Shown: positions 7,484-63,571, numbered from the stretch's first letter. The stretch: 64,000 bases of DNA from a virus (IMGVR_UViG_2778261161_000002); one strand, 5' to 3'. The notes: generated by a model not told the origin, from the sequence alone. Program-made: numbers and translations.

Positions 7484-8482
7484 ATGCAATCACTGAATAC
7501 TGTTACGGATCGCTTCTCCCTGGTAGAGAAAATCCGCAAACACACACCGCAGAACAACCGAAATTATGTCATTCAGTCGGTACGAGACACATTCAACTCG
7601 CCAGAAACAAAAGAGCGTATCGCGCTGGGTGAGATGTATGGTTATTACGGTCATGGTCGCCGGGCGATGCACTATAACAAAACGAAAAGCCTGAACTTGC
7701 CGGAAGTCTCTGTTGTGATGGTAGATGGGAAGCCTGTTGTATTGGAGAACGTGCCGTCAAACAGGACTATCGACATTTCGATTGACGACAACGGCATTGT
7801 TACGCATACGCAGGAAATACTGGATACAGACACCGGGCGTATTGTTCAGGGCATGATTAATTCTGGTGCTGGTGGTTGGTCGTGGGCTACATCTGGTCCA
7901 GATTCATCGGTATCCCTGGTAAAGTCTTTCCACGGCTTTGATTACGTAACTGTGCCTAACTATATCAGCCTCGACAAGAAAAGCCTGATGCTTGAATCAG
8001 CAGAAGAGCGCGATGCGGCTATTCATGCAGCACTTATCGAACAAGGTTTTACCGATAACGCTGCTACGGATCTGGTTCACCACTTTTCAGCAATGAAAAA
8101 TCAGCAAGCCATGCTCGAATCTGCACATCGTGAAGCCCTGGAATCAGAATTGATGCTCCTTGAAGTGGAAAACATACAGCTTCGAGATAAGCTGCGCGCT
8201 CAAACAGCGATGATGGAAAGCCAGGGGGAAAATGCAAAGCAATGCCGCCGGATTTTGCGTGACGCTATCCAGGAAATGCCTGTTTTTATCAGCGCAGAAC
8301 AGCGCCGGGCGCTCTGCCGTATGCAGTCTGAAGATGATGCCCGCATAGTGGCTGCGATGCTTGAATCTCTTGGGGCAAATGCTACTTATGGCTTACCGGT
8401 ATCAGGCAAGAAAGAACCAGAGTTATCACCGAAGGAGAACAAAAACACCACCCCGTTACTCTTCGTTTCTAGAAGGGGGTAA
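7484..8482 (+). CDS. Hypothetical protein, 332 aa
   Basis: ORF track; RBS GGAGGG upstream; coiled-coil C-terminal half. Confidence 0.45.
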   Translation: MQSLNTVTDRFSLVEKIRKHTPQNNRNYVIQSVRDTFNSPETKERIALGEMYGYYGHGRRAMHYNKTKSLNLPEVSVVMVDGKPVVLENVPSNRTIDISIDDNGIVTHTQEILDTDTGRIVQGMINSGAGGWSWATSGPDSSVSLVKSFHGFDYVTVPNYISLDKKSLMLESAEERDAAIHAALIEQGFTDNAATDLVHHFSAMKNQQAMLESAHREALESELMLLEVENIQLRDKLRAQTAMMESQGENAKQCRRILRDAIQEMPVFISAEQRRALCRMQSEDDARIVAAMLESLGANATYGLPVSGKKEPELSPKENKNTTPLLFVSRRG

Positions 8483-8509: not shown

Positions 8510-8599
8510 TAGTGTATTTATATACACTGTTGATCCTGGTGGATGGGATCGAGTAGGATCGCGGTCACTGCTCCGGTAGCGACTGCCAAAAAAGCAAAA

Positions 8600-8620
8600 G
8601 CCGCTGAGAAGCGGCTTTTT
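8600..8620 (+). terminator. Rho-independent terminator GCCGC-tgagaa-GCGGC + T5
   Basis: Hairpin plus T-run read directly. Confidence 0.7.
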
Positions 8621-8682: not shown

Positions 8683-9645
8683 GTGAGTATTTTAAATTCA
8701 GTTTCAGTAACTTTCAACACTTCTGAGTATAAAAACAACACTGAATACCACAAAAAAATCAAAGGTCATCAGTTGAGTTTTTTTGCTCGTCATAGCGGTC
8801 TTCTTTCCCCTTCACATAGCGCCATTATTGCCGAGTTCGCCAACCTGGCAGGGTCTACCGATGAATACATGATCCGTCGCTCATATGCTGATATGTCCGA
8901 GATTACAGGACGCAGCATTTCTACTGTGCGCCGGGCATTTGCTGAAGCGACGAAGTGCGGAATGCTTGTTAAGCAACATCAGGTAGCGAATAACAATGCC
9001 CAGGTGTGTAACGTATATCGGTTTACGACACAATTTCTCCACTTCATTCATGTAGCAATGGAGATAGGGGGTAAGCAGGGCATCAAATTTGCCAACGCCA
9101 CAAAGCTGGTTAAGCAATTGATTTCAAAGGTACGTTATTTTTTTGAAACTGGGAACCCCCTGTTCAAATTGAACAAGTCCCCCCATGTTCAAAATGAACA
9201 GCCAATAGAAAATAAGAGTCACTCTATAGCCAAAAGAAGAGAAAGATCATGCGCGGTTCAGCCAAAGGCTTCACCAGCAGATAGTACTCAAGCGGATAAT
9301 GGGGGACTGGATAAAAAAACAGTAATCAGGGAAGAACATACCAACCACTGCCTGGCGGCGGCAAAAGCGAGAGCTGCAAAGCGTCGTTCAGACGAGGGGC
9401 ACGCAAAACGGCAGGCTCTGTATCGTACCGCTGAAAAGCTGGCAAAAAAATTTGCATGGATACGTAGTGCCGCTACCGCAGTGAATAAGCCTAAACAATC
9501 CAGTGCCCTGGATTTCTCAATGGATTATTCTGGCTCCCAGGGGTGTGTAACCATTGGTGAAGCCTTTGACCTGATGAAACAACGTGGCTATCGGTCTGAA
9601 TTTGACCGGGAGGATTGGTCAATCCCTGCGGGATTTAGGGGATGA
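8683..9645 (+). CDS. HTH DNA-binding protein, possible replication initiator (RepL-like position)
   Basis: HTH-like segment MSEITGRSISTVRRAFAEATKCGMLVKQ; operator-like motif upstream; palindromic repeats inside ORF. Confidence 0.35.
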   Translation: MSILNSVSVTFNTSEYKNNTEYHKKIKGHQLSFFARHSGLLSPSHSAIIAEFANLAGSTDEYMIRRSYADMSEITGRSISTVRRAFAEATKCGMLVKQHQVANNNAQVCNVYRFTTQFLHFIHVAMEIGGKQGIKFANATKLVKQLISKVRYFFETGNPLFKLNKSPHVQNEQPIENKSHSIAKRRERSCAVQPKASPADSTQADNGGLDKKTVIREEHTNHCLAAAKARAAKRRSDEGHAKRQALYRTAEKLAKKFAWIRSAATAVNKPKQSSALDFSMDYSGSQGCVTIGEAFDLMKQRGYRSEFDREDWSIPAGFRG

Positions 9646-24972: not shown

Positions 24973-25548
24973 ATGTTAATGGCGAACGATAACGCATATG
25001 CAGAAGAAGATCTCATTTTGAGTGACTTCATAGGGAAGCGGGAACGCTGGACCCAAAAGCGAGAGGAACTTTACGCCTCATTAGTTCGCAAAGGCGTCAA
25101 TATCGAAACCGCACAGAGCGGCGATATGACAGTGGTAAGCGTTGGATTGCACGGTGTAAGCGTGTCAGCAATCAATCATGAGCCATACGTTGCGTTATCC
25201 GAGTCAATGGTAAGGTTAGTTAAGTTCCTGAAGTACACAGAAGCGAATAATGTAATCATTGGCAAAAAGAATATCCCTTTTTCCTCGGCTTTTTACTGGA
25301 TGATGAAAGGGCTTGATGCCCGGCGGACATCATGGCCTAAAGGGAGCTATATATCGATGTTCCGTGGCAGCATTGGCAGCAAAGAAAAGCTCTTCGAATT
25401 CTTGCCGGAAGAGGCATTCGATATTGTGGAAGGGTGCGATGTGATGGTGATGCCTCGCCTGGTAATGATGAATGGGGATTTACAGGCGCAGACAGACTGG
25501 TTTGCAACTGGTGTGGATATTATCGCGACTGACTGGGAGGCTTTCTGA
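24973..25548 (+). CDS. DUF2829 (Tad2-like) domain protein with N-terminal extension, 191 aa
   Basis: C-terminal half FYWMMKGLDARRTSWPKGSYIS ... WFATGVDIIATDWEAF matches DUF2829 pattern. Confidence 0.5.
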   Translation: MLMANDNAYAEEDLILSDFIGKRERWTQKREELYASLVRKGVNIETAQSGDMTVVSVGLHGVSVSAINHEPYVALSESMVRLVKFLKYTEANNVIIGKKNIPFSSAFYWMMKGLDARRTSWPKGSYISMFRGSIGSKEKLFEFLPEEAFDIVEGCDVMVMPRLVMMNGDLQAQTDWFATGVDIIATDWEAF

Positions 25549-26048: not shown

Positions 26049-26441
26049 ATGGAACAAATCAGCAGCGCAGAAATTGCGGATATCATGATCAGGGCTGACT
26101 GCTATCTGACAGTCACTGAAATTACCACTCTCGCCAAAGAAAAATACCCTCATCTCCATGTTTCACGAGTAAGTGTAACTAACATCATTCGTCATTTTGT
26201 TCGTTCAAGCAGGGCAATCTGTGAGCTGGATGATCGTGTGTATCCACGAAAATACTGGCTACATGGTCTGAACGGATATCAGTTCAAGGTGCGCGGGCGC
26301 ACGCCTGAATACGGTAGCTTACTGGTTAAAAACTGTAGCAGGAAATCAGTCGAACAGGCGCGAAAAGAGCAACGAGAGCTGGTGGACATGGCGAATAAGC
26401 TGTGGAATGCCGCCGTTAAAAAGCGTGGTGTTGCTTTATGA
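26049..26441 (+). CDS. Hypothetical protein upstream of pacA (Lpa-like position), 130 aa
   Basis: ORF track; position immediately upstream of terminase genes. Confidence 0.4.
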   Translation: MEQISSAEIADIMIRADCYLTVTEITTLAKEKYPHLHVSRVSVTNIIRHFVRSSRAICELDDRVYPRKYWLHGLNGYQFKVRGRTPEYGSLLVKNCSRKSVEQARKEQRELVDMANKLWNAAVKKRGVAL

Positions 26442-27802
26442 GTCTGGTTAATTGGGAGGAGCACCGCGCCCGCTTTATAGCGTTGCGTGAAGAAAAAGGG
26501 ATCACTGTAAAGGAATACTGTGAGGAGCATGGCCTTAGCTTCAATACAGCCAGAAAGCATCTCAATATGAAAAAAAATGAGGTGCGGTCGCAGGTAAAGA
26601 CAACAAAAAAAAGCACCAAATCACCTGAAAAAAAACGGGCGGGAAGAGCAACAAAAAAGCTGGAAGAGGGCGCAGAAAAAACAAAATTTACAGAAATTGA
26701 CAATTCGCAGGGTGCAGGTTCTTTCCGAAGTATGCCAAGAAAGAAAACTCCGGATCATGAAAGTAATACCAATAATAACAATGAGATAAAAGAATCTGTC
26801 AGGAGATCATTGCGCGAAAAAATGGCGAAAATGATCCCCGAAGAAGATAAAAGCGCCCCAAAAATTGAGGGATCTTCAGCAATGATCCCTGGCGGTGCTG
26901 TGCAACGTGCCACATTGCCCACTACGAATGTGGCTCGCGACATGATGAAGAACGGCGCAGAAGAACACCTGCGGTTAGCAATTCAAATGGCGCAAGAGCG
27001 CGCACTTCAGTATCAAAGCATTGTTGATCAGGAGGCCGAACGTCTACAGGCGGAAATAGACGCCTTGGGCGATAAAGAGCCAGAAGGAATGCACCCTGGG
27101 CAGCGCCTTCTCGGTCTAATCAGTGACGCGGCCTACTACATGAATGATTTTATCAGTAGGTTGGCAGCTATATATCAGTCCGAACAAAAGCTGCGACAGG
27201 GGGATGAAAAGCTTCGTCAGAGCGCTCGCCAGCAAGCATTCAAAGAGGCTGAGGCCAGAGAAAAACTCGAATTAGCACGCCTACAGGCCGAACAGCGTGG
27301 CAAAGAGATTGAATATCGCATTGGCGCTGACGCACGCGCAGCCAGAGTTATCGCCGCCGCTATACGTATGCGTGAGCGCGAGGAACTGGATGATATCGGT
27401 GTTGCTGAATACATCGAGCGCCAGGGGGTCAGCGTCCCGGCTATCCTCGCGGCGCGCGCGGCGAAAGCTATCACTCTTCTCGAACCACCTGTTTCTGACG
27501 TCAATGATGTTGATGATGAACAGCTGGACAAAGAGGCAAGGGAGTTTGCGACGCTTCAGGCTAACCATCCGCAATGGCTGGCAGAGCGCCGGGCGGATGT
27601 GGCAACCATTGTTGAAGAATTGGGGTGCGGAGATTACGACCGCAATGGCGAGCGTAAAGCTGGAGAATTCGAGGCCAACGACGAAGAGCTGGATATTGAC
27701 CCTTCGGCAACGGCTGAAATTTACGGTGATTATGATGCATCTGATGCAGGGTATGACGCCGGAGATGATGATATCGCGATAGAACCGCCGGAGGATGATT
27801 AA
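26438..27802 (+). CDS. pacA: Terminase small subunit PacA-like, 454 aa, acidic C-terminus
   Basis: Position upstream of and coupled to PacB-like ATPase; basic N-terminus, acidic tail DASDAGYDAGDDDIAIEPPEDD; contains GATC cluster. Confidence 0.55.
   Translation: MSLVNWEEHRARFIALREEKGITVKEYCEEHGLSFNTARKHLNMKKNEVRSQVKTTKKSTKSPEKKRAGRATKKLEEGAEKTKFTEIDNSQGAGSFRSMPRKKTPDHESNTNNNNEIKESVRRSLREKMAKMIPEEDKSAPKIEGSSAMIPGGAVQRATLPTTNVARDMMKNGAEEHLRLAIQMAQERALQYQSIVDQEAERLQAEIDALGDKEPEGMHPGQRLLGLISDAAYYMNDFISRLAAIYQSEQKLRQGDEKLRQSARQQAFKEAEAREKLELARLQAEQRGKEIEYRIGADARAARVIAAAIRMREREELDDIGVAEYIERQGVSVPAILAARAAKAITLLEPPVSDVNDVDDEQLDKEAREFATLQANHPQWLAERRADVATIVEELGCGDYDRNGERKAGEFEANDEELDIDPSATAEIYGDYDASDAGYDAGDDDIAIEPPEDD
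26750..26890. other. Candidate pac (packaging cleavage) site: 5 GATC sites in about 135 bp
   Basis: GATC at 26753, 26805, 26833, 26871, 26884 in contexts GGATCA, AGATCA, TGATCC, GGATCT, TGATCC. Confidence 0.45.
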
Positions 27803-29310
27803 TGGCTGGAGGGCGCAAGATTAAATGCGTCACCAGCGATCCACGCTGGCGCGATATGGTAATCAAATACCGCTACAACTTTACCCAGGCTGTTGTCGAT
27901 ATTTTTGGGATGTTCCCCTCCCACCAGCAGCAGCAGATCATTCAGTCCGTGCAGGAAACGGGGAGTAGGACGACCGTCACGTCCGGACACGGAACGGGGA
28001 AGTCGTCCCTTACCGCGATGTTGCTGTTGATTTTCATGATCCTGTTCCCCGATGCCCGTGTCATCATTGTTGCTAACAAGATAGGCCAGGTAAAAACAGG
28101 CGTATTCAAATACGTTAAACAGTATTGGGCGAATGCAGTTAAGCGTCATGGGTGGTTGCAGACCTATTTTGTCCTCTCTGACACCATGTTTTATGAGCGC
28201 TCCCGTAAGGGGATTTGGGAAGTTCTCTGCAAAGGTTATCGACTCGGCAACGAAGAAGCGCTGGCGGGGGAACACGCGGCACATTTGCTTCTAATTCTGG
28301 ATGAAGCATCTGGTATATCTGATAAGGCGATCGGCGTAATGACCGGTGCTCTTACTGAAGAAGATAACCGGATGTTGATGCTATCCCAGCCAACAAGGCC
28401 AAGTGGTTATTTTTACGATTCGCACCATTCTCAAGCAAAAACCCCAGACAACCCGAAAGGGATCTGGACAGCAATTGTTCTTAACTCGGAAGAATCACCG
28501 TTCGTCACACCACAATTCATCAAGCAGAAGCTTCTGGAATATGGGGGGCGCGATTCTATTGAGTACATGGTCAAGGTGCTTGGTCAGTTCCCACGAGAAA
28601 TTAACGGCTATTTGCTTGGTCGTGATGAATGCGATCGCGCTGCTCGCCGCAAGGTGCTGTTGGAGAAAAACTGGGGATGGGTGGCAACGGCTGACGTTGG
28701 TAATGGGCGAGATAAGTCGGTCCTCAACATCTGCAAGGTATCTGGTCACAGGGATAAGCGGCGCGTTGTTAACTTTAAGGTAATGGAGATGCCTGGCACT
28801 ATGGACCCATTGGCCTTTGCTGACTTCATATATAACGAATGTACGCCGGAAAAATACCCGAATATAACAATCGCGGTTGATGCTGATGGTTTTGGTTCTG
28901 ATACGTGTGCGCAGTTGGTGCGTCGTGGTGCGAACCCGGTACGTATTCGGTGGGGAAAACCCATGTTTGCGAACAAAGACAGGGAGCGATTTGTTAATCA
29001 GCGTGCCTACGCAAATATTATGGCGCGAGATGCCATAAAGTCAGGGCGTATGCGGATAGACAGTGACCCTAAAACGGCAGAGCAAGCGTCAAAAATCCCC
29101 TTTTTACTGAATGAAGAAGGGAAAATGGCGATGATGCGCAAAGAGCACATGCGGCAAAAGCTAAACATCAAATCGCCTGACCGATGGGATACCTACTGCT
29201 TCACTATGCTGGTGGACTATGTGCCTGCTAATGAAGATATTGGTGCCGAAATGGCAACTTTCCGAGATCAGGTTCTGGCGGATATCGAAATGCCGGATCT
29301 GGATATATAA
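27802..29310 (+). CDS. pacB: Terminase large subunit PacB-like, 502 aa
   Basis: Walker A TSGHGTGKSS, Walker B LLLILDEASGI, C-terminal acidic nuclease-like region. Confidence 0.75.
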   Translation: MAGGRKIKCVTSDPRWRDMVIKYRYNFTQAVVDIFGMFPSHQQQQIIQSVQETGSRTTVTSGHGTGKSSLTAMLLLIFMILFPDARVIIVANKIGQVKTGVFKYVKQYWANAVKRHGWLQTYFVLSDTMFYERSRKGIWEVLCKGYRLGNEEALAGEHAAHLLLILDEASGISDKAIGVMTGALTEEDNRMLMLSQPTRPSGYFYDSHHSQAKTPDNPKGIWTAIVLNSEESPFVTPQFIKQKLLEYGGRDSIEYMVKVLGQFPREINGYLLGRDECDRAARRKVLLEKNWGWVATADVGNGRDKSVLNICKVSGHRDKRRVVNFKVMEMPGTMDPLAFADFIYNECTPEKYPNITIAVDADGFGSDTCAQLVRRGANPVRIRWGKPMFANKDRERFVNQRAYANIMARDAIKSGRMRIDSDPKTAEQASKIPFLLNEEGKMAMMRKEHMRQKLNIKSPDRWDTYCFTMLVDYVPANEDIGAEMATFRDQVLADIEMPDLDI

Positions 29311-29337: not shown

Positions 29338-30375
29338 TTACCAGAGCTTCGCGGCGTACTGCGTTTGGGGGAATGTGTATCCGTAACGTTCTTCGATTGC
29401 TTTGCCGTATTTTTTACGAGCTTCATTCAGTTTAATGCCGGTCAGGTCGTCTCCAGAGGCCATCATTACGTCTAACAATTCCAGATCCATTTTATCCAGC
29501 CTTGCCATTGCTTCACGTGATGTACGTATCTTACGTTCAATGATATGGCGAATAGCCGGATCGGCATCCTCCAGCATCTTAGCGGATTTCTGCTTAAGGC
29601 TTTCATTGCGAATATCGATGTTCCTTAAGATGTACGACTTCGCAACGTAGCTTGGCTGGTGTTTTTCCAGGTCACGAACACGATATAAGTTAAAATCGCC
29701 GAGAAGGCTGCAAGGTACCGATTCGACGCCAGAATAAATTGTAATGCTCCGGCGTTCACCAACATTATTGACAACGGGGATCGTTGTCTTCGGTAGTCTT
29801 GCGAAAACCAATGCGCCATGTGCGCCAACTCTAAAGCGAGAAAGGGCATTGCTGCCTTCGATGTTTGTTGTCAGCACAACATCTGTATATGCCTCTTTAC
29901 GCGCCCGGTAGATCTCGCCTTCAGGCTCAGCTTCAAAGAAGCGCTGTTCTTCTTCAAGAGCACCTACGATTTGAGAAAAAACCCTATTTTTCAGGCTTTT
30001 CTTTATGATTTTGTCGTATTTTTTTAGCAATTGTTCACGTGTAAATGTACGTGTTGTTGTAGCGCTTTGCACAACGACATGCGTGCTTTGATTGGTGTCC
30101 TCAATGATGAATGGGATCGGAGAATATACAGACTCAACAATGTTCGACGCTTTGCCGTCGGCATCGCGGCACATGTCAACGAAGGCTTTCCATTCAGCAA
30201 GACATTTTTCAGCTTCTTCTAATATGTTTTGGTCATGCGTTAATGCAACATGGCGGAATTCCTCGCCAGCATAACTGGTATCATGGAAAACAGAGTTTGC
30301 GACCACCAGCTCTTTCCACCGTTCAGCGGTTTGCAGGAACCGTTTGTACTCTTTCTCGATCGACTTCTTACTCAT
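29338..30375 (-). CDS. Putative C1-like immunity repressor, 345 aa
   Basis: Position between pacB and lox/cre as in P1; operator-like motif 20 bp upstream of its start; no family motif verified. Confidence 0.4.
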   Translation of the reverse strand: MSKKSIEKEYKRFLQTAERWKELVVANSVFHDTSYAGEEFRHVALTHDQNILEEAEKCLAEWKAFVDMCRDADGKASNIVESVYSPIPFIIEDTNQSTHVVVQSATTTRTFTREQLLKKYDKIIKKSLKNRVFSQIVGALEEEQRFFEAEPEGEIYRARKEAYTDVVLTTNIEGSNALSRFRVGAHGALVFARLPKTTIPVVNNVGERRSITIYSGVESVPCSLLGDFNLYRVRDLEKHQPSYVAKSYILRNIDIRNESLKQKSAKMLEDADPAIRHIIERKIRTSREAMARLDKMDLELLDVMMASGDDLTGIKLNEARKKYGKAIEERYGYTFPQTQYAAKLW

Positions 30376-30584: not shown

Positions 30585-30618
30585 ATAACTTTAAATAATT
30601 GGCATTATTTAAAGTTAG
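30585..30618 (+). other. lox-like recombination site: ATAACTTTAAATA-ATTGGCAT-TATTTAAAGTTAG
   Basis: 13-bp inverted arms (12 of 13 complementary) around an 8-bp asymmetric spacer; outer arm ATAACTT identical to loxP; about 150 bp upstream of Cre homolog. Confidence 0.7.
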
Positions 30619-61103: not shown

Positions 61104-62009
61104 ATGAGATCAGTCGCTTTCAAAAATATCTTCATCTATCGTCTTTCACGCGAAGTTAACTGGGATACCGCAGAAGTAAATGCTGCCCTTAGCAAGTTTG
61201 TGTTTACCCCATGCGGTTCTCAGGATATTGCTAAAGCTGGTTGGACCCCCGTCCTTGGCGACAACCTCACCCATGAATACAAGGGTTTTCTTCTGATACA
61301 GCATAAACGAGAGGAAAAAATCCTACCTTCTCAAGTGCTCAAAGAAGAGCTACAGAAAAAAATCCTGAAACTTGAAGAAGAACAAGACAGAAAGCTGAAG
61401 AAGACCGAAAAAGATTCGCTGAAGGATGAAGTGCTTCACTCTCTTCTTCCTCGTGCTTTCACGAGAAAATCAGTCGCTAAAATCCTGATAGACCGAAGCA
61501 ATCATCTGGTTTTTGTCGAGGCGAGCAGTGCTAAAAAAGCAGAGGATCAGCTGGCTTTGTTACGGAAATCTCTTGGCAGCTTGCCCGTTGTCCCCTTCTC
61601 TCCGAAAGACCCATTAGAACTGACCATCACTGGCTGGATTAAAAATGGCTTCCCGAACGGTTTCCGTGCCGGTGAGGAAGCGACCTTAAAAGCATTGCTT
61701 GATGATGGCGGCGCGGTCCGCTGCAAAAAAGTGGACCTGCTATCCGACGAGATCATGAGTCATATAGAAGCTGGTAAGGTTGCAACCACAGTTGCGGTTA
61801 ACTGGCAAGACCGTGCATTTTTCAGACTGAATGACGATATGAGTATCAAGGCTTTGTCGTTCAGCGACGAATTGTACGACCAGAACGACGATATTGATCG
61901 AGGGGATGTTGCTCAACGATTTGACGCTGACTTTATCCTGTTTACTGCTGAATTATCAGCGATGTTCACTTCGCTGGTGGAGGCCGTTGGTGGTGAAGCA
62001 GAACGTTAA
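61104..62009 (+). CDS. rdgC: Recombination-associated protein RdgC
   Basis: [69 protein letters not shown] blocks match E. coli RdgC. Confidence 0.9.
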
Positions 62010-62022
62010 CAATAGACCTCTT

Positions 62023-62673
62023 ATGGTGAGTCTTTGTGATTTCACGGGGAAAATGGTCGCCCCCTGGCTGGAGCATGGTATAGATGCTGTTATCGTCGAT
62101 CCACAACACGCAAAGACCACAGATGAGCTGATGCAATCAGGCGCAGTTCTGACACGTATCAGTGCGATTATCGATAGTGATGAAGTTTATGCTTTTCTCC
62201 GAAATAATTTACAACGTATTGTGTTTTTAGCTGGTTTTCCGCCGTGCACGGACCTTGCTGTTTCCGGTGCGCGCTGGTTTGCACATAAGGCTGACAAAGA
62301 TCCGGTTTTCCAGTTCAAAGCGATGCAAGTCGTCTGGCAGTGTTACGACATTGCAAAGATGATTGGTTTCCCGTACATGATTGAAAACCCGGTCAGCCAA
62401 ATATCGACATTCTGGCGTAAACCTGATCACATCTTCCATCCTTACCACTTCACTGCATATTGCAAGGAAGACAATTACACCAAAAAAACATGCCTCTGGA
62501 GCGGGCAGGGCTTTGTCATGCCTGATGCCCTAATGGACGAATCATTAGGCAAGCCAGATAACAGAATCCATACCGCGCCACCTGGGCCTGAAAGGGCTAA
62601 TTTTCGAAGTGCTACTCCGAATGGATTCGCAAAAGCAGTTTTCGAAGCAAATAAGGGGGTGCTCTATGAGTAA
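62023..62673 (+). CDS. Short C5-cytosine-methyltransferase-like protein (atypical, about 216 aa)
   Basis: GFPPCTDLAVSG (PC motif IV-like) and MIENPV (ENV-like) in correct order and spacing; no TRD; stop overlaps dam start. Confidence 0.4.
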   Translation: MVSLCDFTGKMVAPWLEHGIDAVIVDPQHAKTTDELMQSGAVLTRISAIIDSDEVYAFLRNNLQRIVFLAGFPPCTDLAVSGARWFAHKADKDPVFQFKAMQVVWQCYDIAKMIGFPYMIENPVSQISTFWRKPDHIFHPYHFTAYCKEDNYTKKTCLWSGQGFVMPDALMDESLGKPDNRIHTAPPGPERANFRSATPNGFAKAVFEANKGVLYE

Positions 62674-63571
62674 ATCTCTAGTAAGCACAGCCATAGAAAG
62701 ACATGATTCGATGGCGGAAATTAGCTATATGCGCACCATTCGGACTCCGGATGAATACGAGCGTCCGATCTTCAAATGGGTAGGCGGTAAATTTTCAGAG
62801 TTGCCTATAGTGCTTGAGCATCTACCACACGGTAAGCGGTTAATAGAACCATTCGTTGGTGGCGGTTCCGTATTTACGAATGCAGGATTTCGCCACAACC
62901 TGCTTAATGATATTAACGGTGACTTGATTAACTTCTATCAGACATTGCAGCGAGAAAGACATTCTCTAGTCACGCTGTCATATAGTTTTTTCCAAAATTA
63001 CAACAACGCTGACGCTTACCTCGAAGTGCGTGAGGCATTTAACAGAGGAAAGTATGACCAACTACATCATGCTGCTGCCTTTTTGTACCTTAATCGGCAC
63101 TGTTTTAATGGCGTAACACGGTACAACCAAAATGGCGAGTTCAACGTAGGGTATGGTAAATACAAAGCGCCCTACTTCCCACATGCAGAGATGGAGGCAT
63201 TTTTGGCTGATGACGTACTCAAAAACACTTCCTTTGTATCAGGTGACTTTGCTGGCGTCATCGAGGCGGCTGGTGAAGGCGATGTGATTTTTTGCGATCC
63301 GCCGTATGAACCGCTGCCGGATACAGAAGGGTTTACCAGTTATTCAGGAAATAGCTTCCGTTTCGACGAACAGAAACGGCTGGTATCTCTATTGGTGGAA
63401 GCCCACCAGCGCGGCGCTAAGGTAGTGATTACAAATAGTGGTGCGCCAAACATCCGTGAACTATATGAAGGAAACGGGTTTAAAGTACATCATATGGCAG
63501 CCAGACGGTCGGTTTCCTGCAAGGCGTCAACACGTGTAGTTGCTAACGATATAATTGCAATAATGAAGTAA
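62666..63571 (+). CDS. dam: Dam-family N6-adenine DNA methyltransferase (GATC)
   Basis: FKWVGGK, EPFVGGGSVF, FLYLNRHCFNGVTRYN, GEFNV, CDPPY align with E. coli Dam. Confidence 0.85.
   Translation: MSKSLVSTAIERHDSMAEISYMRTIRTPDEYERPIFKWVGGKFSELPIVLEHLPHGKRLIEPFVGGGSVFTNAGFRHNLLNDINGDLINFYQTLQRERHSLVTLSYSFFQNYNNADAYLEVREAFNRGKYDQLHHAAAFLYLNRHCFNGVTRYNQNGEFNVGYGKYKAPYFPHAEMEAFLADDVLKNTSFVSGDFAGVIEAAGEGDVIFCDPPYEPLPDTEGFTSYSGNSFRFDEQKRLVSLLVEAHQRGAKVVITNSGAPNIRELYEGNGFKVHHMAARRSVSCKASTRVVANDIIAIMK

Follow-up and report, generated by a model that had tools for sequence, protein, structure and literature searches.

A conserved array of GATC repeats within pacA is a candidate pac site of the D6-type phage-plasmids

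Within the 64,000-bp stretch of viral DNA analysed here (the window), five GATC (Dam) sites lie close together in pacA, the gene for the small subunit of the pacase. Conservation of these sites among diverged relatives indicates that the cluster is probably the packaging-initiation (pac) recognition region of a D6-type phage-plasmid and the evolutionary counterpart of P1 pac. In P1, pac is a 161-bp site in pacA that contains seven TGATCA/G repeats with Dam sites, and methylation controls its cleavage (PMC10028697). We regard the D6-type array as a well-supported candidate pac site, seemingly orthologous to P1 pac but of variant architecture, at which cleavage and its dependence on methylation would follow by analogy with P1. 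The cluster is the expected orthologue of a textbook element in a known P1 relative, and its variant repeat word and missing arm are of moderate interest. No pac feature is annotated in the D6 GenBank records, and full-text literature searches returned no description of a D6 pac site, although an earlier mention in the primary D6 papers is possible.

Judged by its sequence, the window is a D6-like plasmid prophage related to P1. The pacA-pacB segment (26438-29310) is 99.5% identical to that of Escherichia phage D6, and the closest complete replicon is the E. coli plasmid NZ_AP018804 (99.9%). The D6 records annotate lpa, pacA, pacB, c1, the rox site and dre, and the order in the window is identical (Table 1). 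The block is syntenic with lpa-pacA-pacB-c1-lox-cre of P1, and the distance from the GATC cluster to rox (~3.8 kb) resembles that from pac to lox (~4.0 kb). The gene was identified as pacA through the annotated pacA of the D6 records (99.5%) and through a match to PHROG 1711, 'terminase' (E=1.8e-183). A tblastn search of a phage collection with PacA (E<=1e-5) matched only D6 itself, so that homology to P1 PacA had to be sought by direct pairwise comparison; this gave 21% identity (E=2e-9), with the N-terminal motif W..H...G.T..Y..L..NTAR..L invariant. PacB is 56% identical to P1 PacB over 488 aa. On the strength of these alignments, both subunits are homologous to the P1 pacase proteins PacA and PacB. 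A sequence search of the PDB with PacA returned no relative at E<=1. According to a published survey, the D6-like subgroup has homologues of pacB only (PMC7969092); contrary to that survey, the alignments in fact place a strongly diverged PacA, together with its candidate site, in a D6-like element.

D6-type pacA was found in 141 plasmid records and in numerous viral contigs, with identities ranging between 100% and ~28%. The pacA of the window is carried by 99 of 5,426 complete E. coli genomes, on a plasmid every time, and D6-type pacA is present too in Salmonella, Shigella and Citrobacter; plasmid prophages of this type are thus common. An open reading frame at 24973..25548 of the window encodes a Pfam domain of the Tad2-like kind (Thoeris anti-defence 2; E=1e-9), and NCBI annotates its relatives as 'MW1434 family type I TA system toxin'.

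Table 1. Positions in the window of the candidate pac region, its repeats and the associated genes
Feature	Position	Strand	Remarks
lpa, late-promoter activator	26049..26441	+	Immediately 5' of pacA, as in P1
pacA, pacase small subunit, 454 aa	26438..27802	+	N-terminal HTH-like region, then low-complexity linker with the cluster
Five-GATC (Dam site) cluster	26753..26887		Candidate pac recognition region
Repeat 1, CATGATCCG	26751..26759	-	GATC 26753-26756; pacA nt 316
IHF-like TAACAATGAGATA	26776..26788	+	AT-rich spacer between repeats 1 and 2; chance-level match
Repeat 2, AATGATCTC	26803..26811	-	GATC 26805-26808; pacA nt 368
Repeat 3, exact AATGATCCC	26830..26838	+	GATC 26833-26836; pacA nt 396
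Repeat 4, GAAGATCCC	26869..26877	-	GATC 26871-26874; pacA nt 434
Repeat 5, exact AATGATCCC	26881..26889	+	GATC 26884-26887; pacA nt 447
pacB, pacase large subunit, 502 aa	27802..29310	+	
c1	29338..30375	-	
rox site (Dre target)	30586..30617		~3.8 kb downstream of GATC cluster
Dam-family N6-adenine DNA methyltransferase, 301 aa	62666..63571	+	

The original prediction of a Dam-regulated pac site had noted five GATC sites within about 135 bp of pacA, where about 0.5 would be expected. The positions were confirmed, as was the expectation (0.48 in 135 bp); the sites span pacA nt 316-450 and are separated by 52, 28, 38 and 13 bp. The window as a whole holds 226 GATC, and dinucleotide shuffles gave slightly more (253). 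No other group of five sites is as tight: the runner-up among independent clusters covers 270 bp in the window and 331 bp in the complete 91,159-bp D6 genome. However, the chance of an equally tight cluster anywhere in the window was P=0.22 under uniform placement and P=0.18 under an order-3 Markov model, and for the whole of D6 it was P=0.30; limiting the test to the pre-specified pacA gene gave P=0.005. The numbers in the prediction were therefore right, but the significance that they implied was overstated. Density was rejected as proof of pac, as such tightness is expected in about one of every three to five sequences of this size, and because density alone is not significant after a scan-wide test, the case rests on conservation.

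Elsewhere in the window, three GATC sites fall within 29 bp (8532-8560, ttGATCctggtggatggGATCgagtagGATCgcgg) between a pro-like ORF (7484..8482) and a repL-like ORF (8683..9645), followed by a hairpin and T-run at about 8585-8620. The triplet might be a Dam-sensitive element that acts in control, or as the origin, of the lytic replicon.

Each GATC in the cluster is part of a longer repeat. The consensus, AATGATCCC, is asymmetric and is present in both orientations (-, -, +, -, +), with repeats 2 and 3 together forming a 10-nt inverted repeat. Both exact copies of AATGATCCC in the 64 kb sit in the cluster, compared with ~0.5 expected anywhere, and the cluster contains three of the 11 copies of ATGATCC in the window (0.026 expected). 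The five hexamers read GGATCA, AGATCA, TGATCC, GGATCT and TGATCC. Their proposed resemblance to the TGATCA/G elements of P1 proved to be a loose one: the ATGATC core is shared, but none of the five repeats matches TGATCA or TGATCG on either strand. In a related lineage (L004), four of the five repeats are ATGATCCC and all five contain TGATCC. More broadly, the D6-type PacA clades use TGATCC while nearly all other clades use TGATCA, such that the word changes with the PacA clade, as would be expected if PacA reads it. The putative recognition helix of PacA is ARKHL in the D6-type clades, compared with ARREL or ARRYL in the TGATCA-type clades, and we infer that the difference in the repeat word is linked to this difference in the helix.

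Conservation of the sites was analysed in three colinear pacA lineages, namely that of the window and D6, L004 (NZ_CP085065) and L044, which share 72-75% nucleotide identity overall and 60-68% in nt 301-480. All five GATCs are invariant in the three lineages (permutation P=6.5e-5), against a background in which 14.5% of linker 4-mers and ~50% of columns are invariant. Four of the nine invariant linker runs of at least 5 nt contain GATC; these runs include GGATCA, GATCATT, AAATGATCCC and AATGATCCC, the last two being the longest of all, and repeat 3 lies within the 10-nt run AAATGATCCC. The five GATCs occupy reading frames 0, 1, 2, 1 and 2, and since all three frames are used, no single repeated peptide motif lies behind the array. 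The codon before Ser (TCN) alternates between AGA (Arg) and GGA (Gly) at sites 2 and 4 with GATC preserved, and at both Met-Ile-Pro motifs the Ile codon is ATC in all lineages, never ATT or ATA. Shuffling of synonymous codons gave ~2 GATC compared with the five seen (P=0.01, 0.007 and 0.002 in the three lineages). P1 pac, used as a positive control, gave eight compared with 5.4 (P=0.038), and by this measure the D6-type array is at least as strong as the control.

The linker that holds the array connects the N-terminal HTH-like region of PacA with the C-terminal part, both of them conserved. It is AT-rich (37-42% GC), A-skewed and rich in Lys, Glu, Asn and Ser, and protein constraint on it is weak, so that PacA would lose little by the retention of a DNA word here. 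The Enterobacter clade, at 55% amino-acid identity, has lost sites 1 and 4 and retains the other three (2, 3 and 5); two GATCs are gained nearby, one of them in a six-codon insertion, and the total is again five. Such turnover at a constant number indicates selection on the array rather than on particular codons. It is conservation rather than density that makes the cluster real. Two natural variants have each lost one GATC through a T-to-C change (GACC), one at pacA nt 368 (L029; Ser to Pro) and the other at nt 396 (L049; Ile to Thr), which suggests either that single sites are dispensable or that those prophages package poorly.

Two further runs, AATTTACA and TGACAA (window 26685-26703; pacA nt 248-266), located 50-70 nt upstream of repeat 1, are also invariant in the three D6-type lineages. 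They may reflect conservation at the protein level (Phe-Thr..Asp) or may be extra DNA elements of the site.

Across the wider family, pacA was taken from ~90 loci of P1-like, Pantoea, Citrobacter, Xenorhabdus, Rosenbergiella and other clades. Twenty clade representatives, reaching down to ~21% PacA identity and including P1 with its mapped pac, were compared; 18 of these carry 5-9 GATC in pacA nt 150-480, where 0.9-1.7 would be expected. The Pantoea, Citrobacter, Xenorhabdus and Rosenbergiella arrays share the gene region and the GATC enrichment of the D6-type array, and that of the Enterobacter pJBIWA008_2 type shares in addition the TGATCC word and three of the five positions. The D6 group differs from the others in layout. 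Every examined clade outside this group has two arms, the left one within nt 150-260 and the right one within nt 320-480; in the Enterobacter relatives of D6 these comprise three repeats (nt 157-181) and five repeats, respectively. In contrast, the D6, L004 and L044 lineages contain no left arm, with no GATC between pacA nt 63 and 316 and with a four-codon gap where the Enterobacter clade has its left arm. Most of the two-armed pacA genes of other P1-related prophages also use the palindromic TGATCA, and their left arm is often 12-bp periodic, encoding Asp-His/Asp-Gln repeats.

Two observations concern this left part of the gene. In a set of related Pantoea loci (L007 and relatives), six TGATCA occur at an exact 12-bp spacing in pacA nt 154-214, all in frame 0 and encoding Asp-His/Asp-Gln repeats, a regular left arm unlike anything in P1 or D6. 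In the window, the minus strand at 26498-26506 (pacA nt 63; GATC at 26500) reads AGTGATCCC, which differs from the 9-mer at one position. D6, L004 and L044, all three without a left arm, retain this GATC, and the Enterobacter clade, with a left arm, lacks it; the same stretch also encodes the conserved Gly-Ile-Thr of the HTH region.

Like P1 pac, the array is carried by the gene for the small subunit of a homologous pacase, where it occupies the linker that follows the N-terminal HTH region, and it is built of repeated words with an ATGATC core that holds the Dam site. In P1, whose site measures about 161-162 bp, the hexamers fall into two groups (pacA nt 195-229 and nt 325-348) that enclose the annotated IHF site and the cleavage points; both arms matter, and P1 pac works with PacA, PacB, IHF and HU. 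In contrast, the D6-type site has five repeats rather than seven, uses AATGATCCC rather than TGATCA/G, is without a separate left arm of four repeats and lies ~120 nt further into the gene. Rather than the two arms of a P1-type pac (4 + 3 hexamers and a ~90-bp cleavage region), a single array was found, and no significant IHF site was found in it.

Other packaging systems share some of these features. P22 (gene 3) and SPP1 (pacL, pacC and pacR) begin their processive headful series at a recognition site within or next to the small-terminase gene, and the D6-type array is likewise embedded in its small-terminase gene. To our knowledge, the P22 and SPP1 sites are neither built of Dam sites nor methylation-gated, and their small terminases are unrelated in sequence to PacA. 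Methylation of GATC after replication decides the action of proteins on DNA in SeqA sequestration of oriC, in the pap operon and at the IS10 transposase; however, these systems control replication initiation, transcription and transposition rather than cleavage by a terminase.

The element had also been predicted to encode its own Dam methylase, and membership of the Dam family was borne out. The product of 62666..63571 scores 248.3 bits against TIGR00571 (cut-off 114.85) and matches PF02086 at E=2.5e-56; E. coli Dam structures match it at E=2.5e-58, and its DPPY motif aligns with that of E. coli Dam. Its score of 239 falls short of the equivalog cut-off of 441 that applies to E. coli Dam itself. 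Specificity for GATC is probable from the family membership, from the best solved relatives (E. coli Dam and DpnM, both GATC enzymes) and from the D6 record, which describes a methylase similar to the C-terminal half of P1 dmt. Like P1, the genome encodes a Dam-family methylase, here homologous to part of P1 Dmt. An ORF directly upstream (61894..62673) overlaps this gene and occupies the position of the second DNA methyltransferase of the D6 record (D6 orf64); P1 combines its methylase functions in the single fusion protein Dmt.

One point in favour of a mere by-product of chance or coding, in which Asp-His, Gly/Arg-Ser and Met-Ile-Pro (twice) happen to spell GATC, is the scan-wide P of only 0.18-0.30; in addition, the protein sequence alone raises the expectation to ~2 GATC, and Met-Ile-Pro and Gly-Ser each occur twice. 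However, this would leave unexplained why Ile is always ATC at both Met-Ile-Pro motifs, why the rare codons AGA and GGA alternate while GATC stays, why five sites are invariant (P=6.5e-5) in a linker that is ~50% invariant per column, and why losses are offset by gains in the 55% clade amid a family-wide enrichment; we consider it highly improbable. A conserved array could instead serve some other Dam or SeqA purpose, such as sequestration or timing of pacA-pacB or the marking of new DNA, with the true pac lying elsewhere. GATC clusters generally read out methylation state, as at oriC/SeqA and in the pap switch, the D6 array is without the two-armed P1 layout, and the tight GATC triplet upstream of the repL-like gene indicates that Dam-sensitive control may operate elsewhere in the genome. 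Yet no promoter-like site was found in or near the cluster, which argues against a transcriptional switch; the cluster lies >300 nt inside the gene, and in P1 the corresponding position is where experiments have mapped pac. Moreover, a word that varies with the PacA clade is expected of a binding site for PacA but not of one for SeqA or Dam, since these recognise nothing beyond GATC, and this alternative is accordingly unlikely.

The missing arm raises a different question, whether the array is half or a remnant of the packaging site and has a modulating or assisting role, with essential elements for recognition or cleavage outside 26750-26890, for example AGTGATCCC or non-GATC sequences. The left arm at nt 150-260 in the other examined clades, and the presence of both arms in the Enterobacter relatives, are consistent with this, as are the exact retention of the one-mismatch 9-mer at nt 63 in the lineages without a left arm and the conserved runs AATTTACA and TGACAA upstream of repeat 1. 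However, the nt-63 site coincides with the codons of the conserved Gly-Ile-Thr of the HTH, so that constraint on the protein could account for its retention, the upstream runs encode conserved residues too, and D6 is a viable phage with this array alone, which makes a partial site quite unlikely. The array as the pac recognition region remains the reading that we prefer, and to this extent the conservation, codon, site-turnover and family comparisons support what was originally proposed, with cleavage expected by analogy with P1.

According to this preferred reading of the array as pac, an Lpa-dependent operon would produce PacA and PacB late in lytic growth; the gene order is that observed in the window, and the timing is modelled on P1. 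PacA would bind the five AATGATCCC-type repeats within its own gene on concatemeric DNA, presumably via its N-terminal helix-turn-helix, and the DNA would be cut in or beside the array by PacA with PacB (nuclease and ATPase), probably together with host IHF/HU. If the direction is as in P1, headful packaging would then proceed toward pacB, c1 and rox, which lie in the order and at the distance given above. The first headful would consequently carry rox in its terminal redundancy, allowing Dre-mediated circularisation. Because every repeat contains a GATC, cutting is expected to need full adenine methylation, which, following P1, would be provided by host Dam and by the element's own Dam-family enzyme. 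Hemimethylated fresh copies would be spared, giving one cut per packaging series.

It is conceivable, and we suggest it tentatively, that pac has been re-engineered in this group into a single mixed-orientation AATGATCCC array, the left arm having been lost and the word switched together with the PacA recognition helix. If so, the pacase would assemble on DNA with a different geometry, and packaging would be orthogonal to that of P1, providing a second, non-cross-reacting tool for phagemids and transduction. A packaging site predicts the start of the packaging series and hence which flanking DNA each series packages. The array would also provide a defined fragment for D6-based phagemids that should not cross-react with P1, and a natural experiment on joint changes in the specificity of a small terminase and of its site, here from TGATCA to TGATCC and from two arms to one.

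No exact IHF consensus was found within the cluster. The IHF-like TAACAATGAGATA has two mismatches to the consensus WATCAANNNNTTR, a level reached about once per 100 bp by chance, and it resembles the annotated P1 IHF site AAACAAAGAGTTA; ATAACA, in the spacer between repeats 1 and 2, is invariant across lineages. Our best guess, made with low confidence, is that the cut falls in this AT-rich spacer, in which the IHF-like sequence may, on weak evidence, mark a point of bending or cleavage. An exact IHF consensus at 27011-27023, beside a sixth GATC (27026), was left out of the element because it lies in a conserved Val-Asp-Gln-Glu-Ala coding stretch and this GATC is not kept in L004. Contig ends were considered as a proxy for virion ends and rejected as anecdote, with one broken assembly compared with 22 other D6-type viral contigs that match both flanking probes and span the cluster. 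In the one genome that breaks there (IMG isolate genome 2537562191), one contig ends (L054) and another starts (L043) just 3' of repeat 1, at about 26757-26766 of the window, with a 10-bp overlap, ATGAAAATAA; the break could represent pac-cut ends or a plain assembly artefact.
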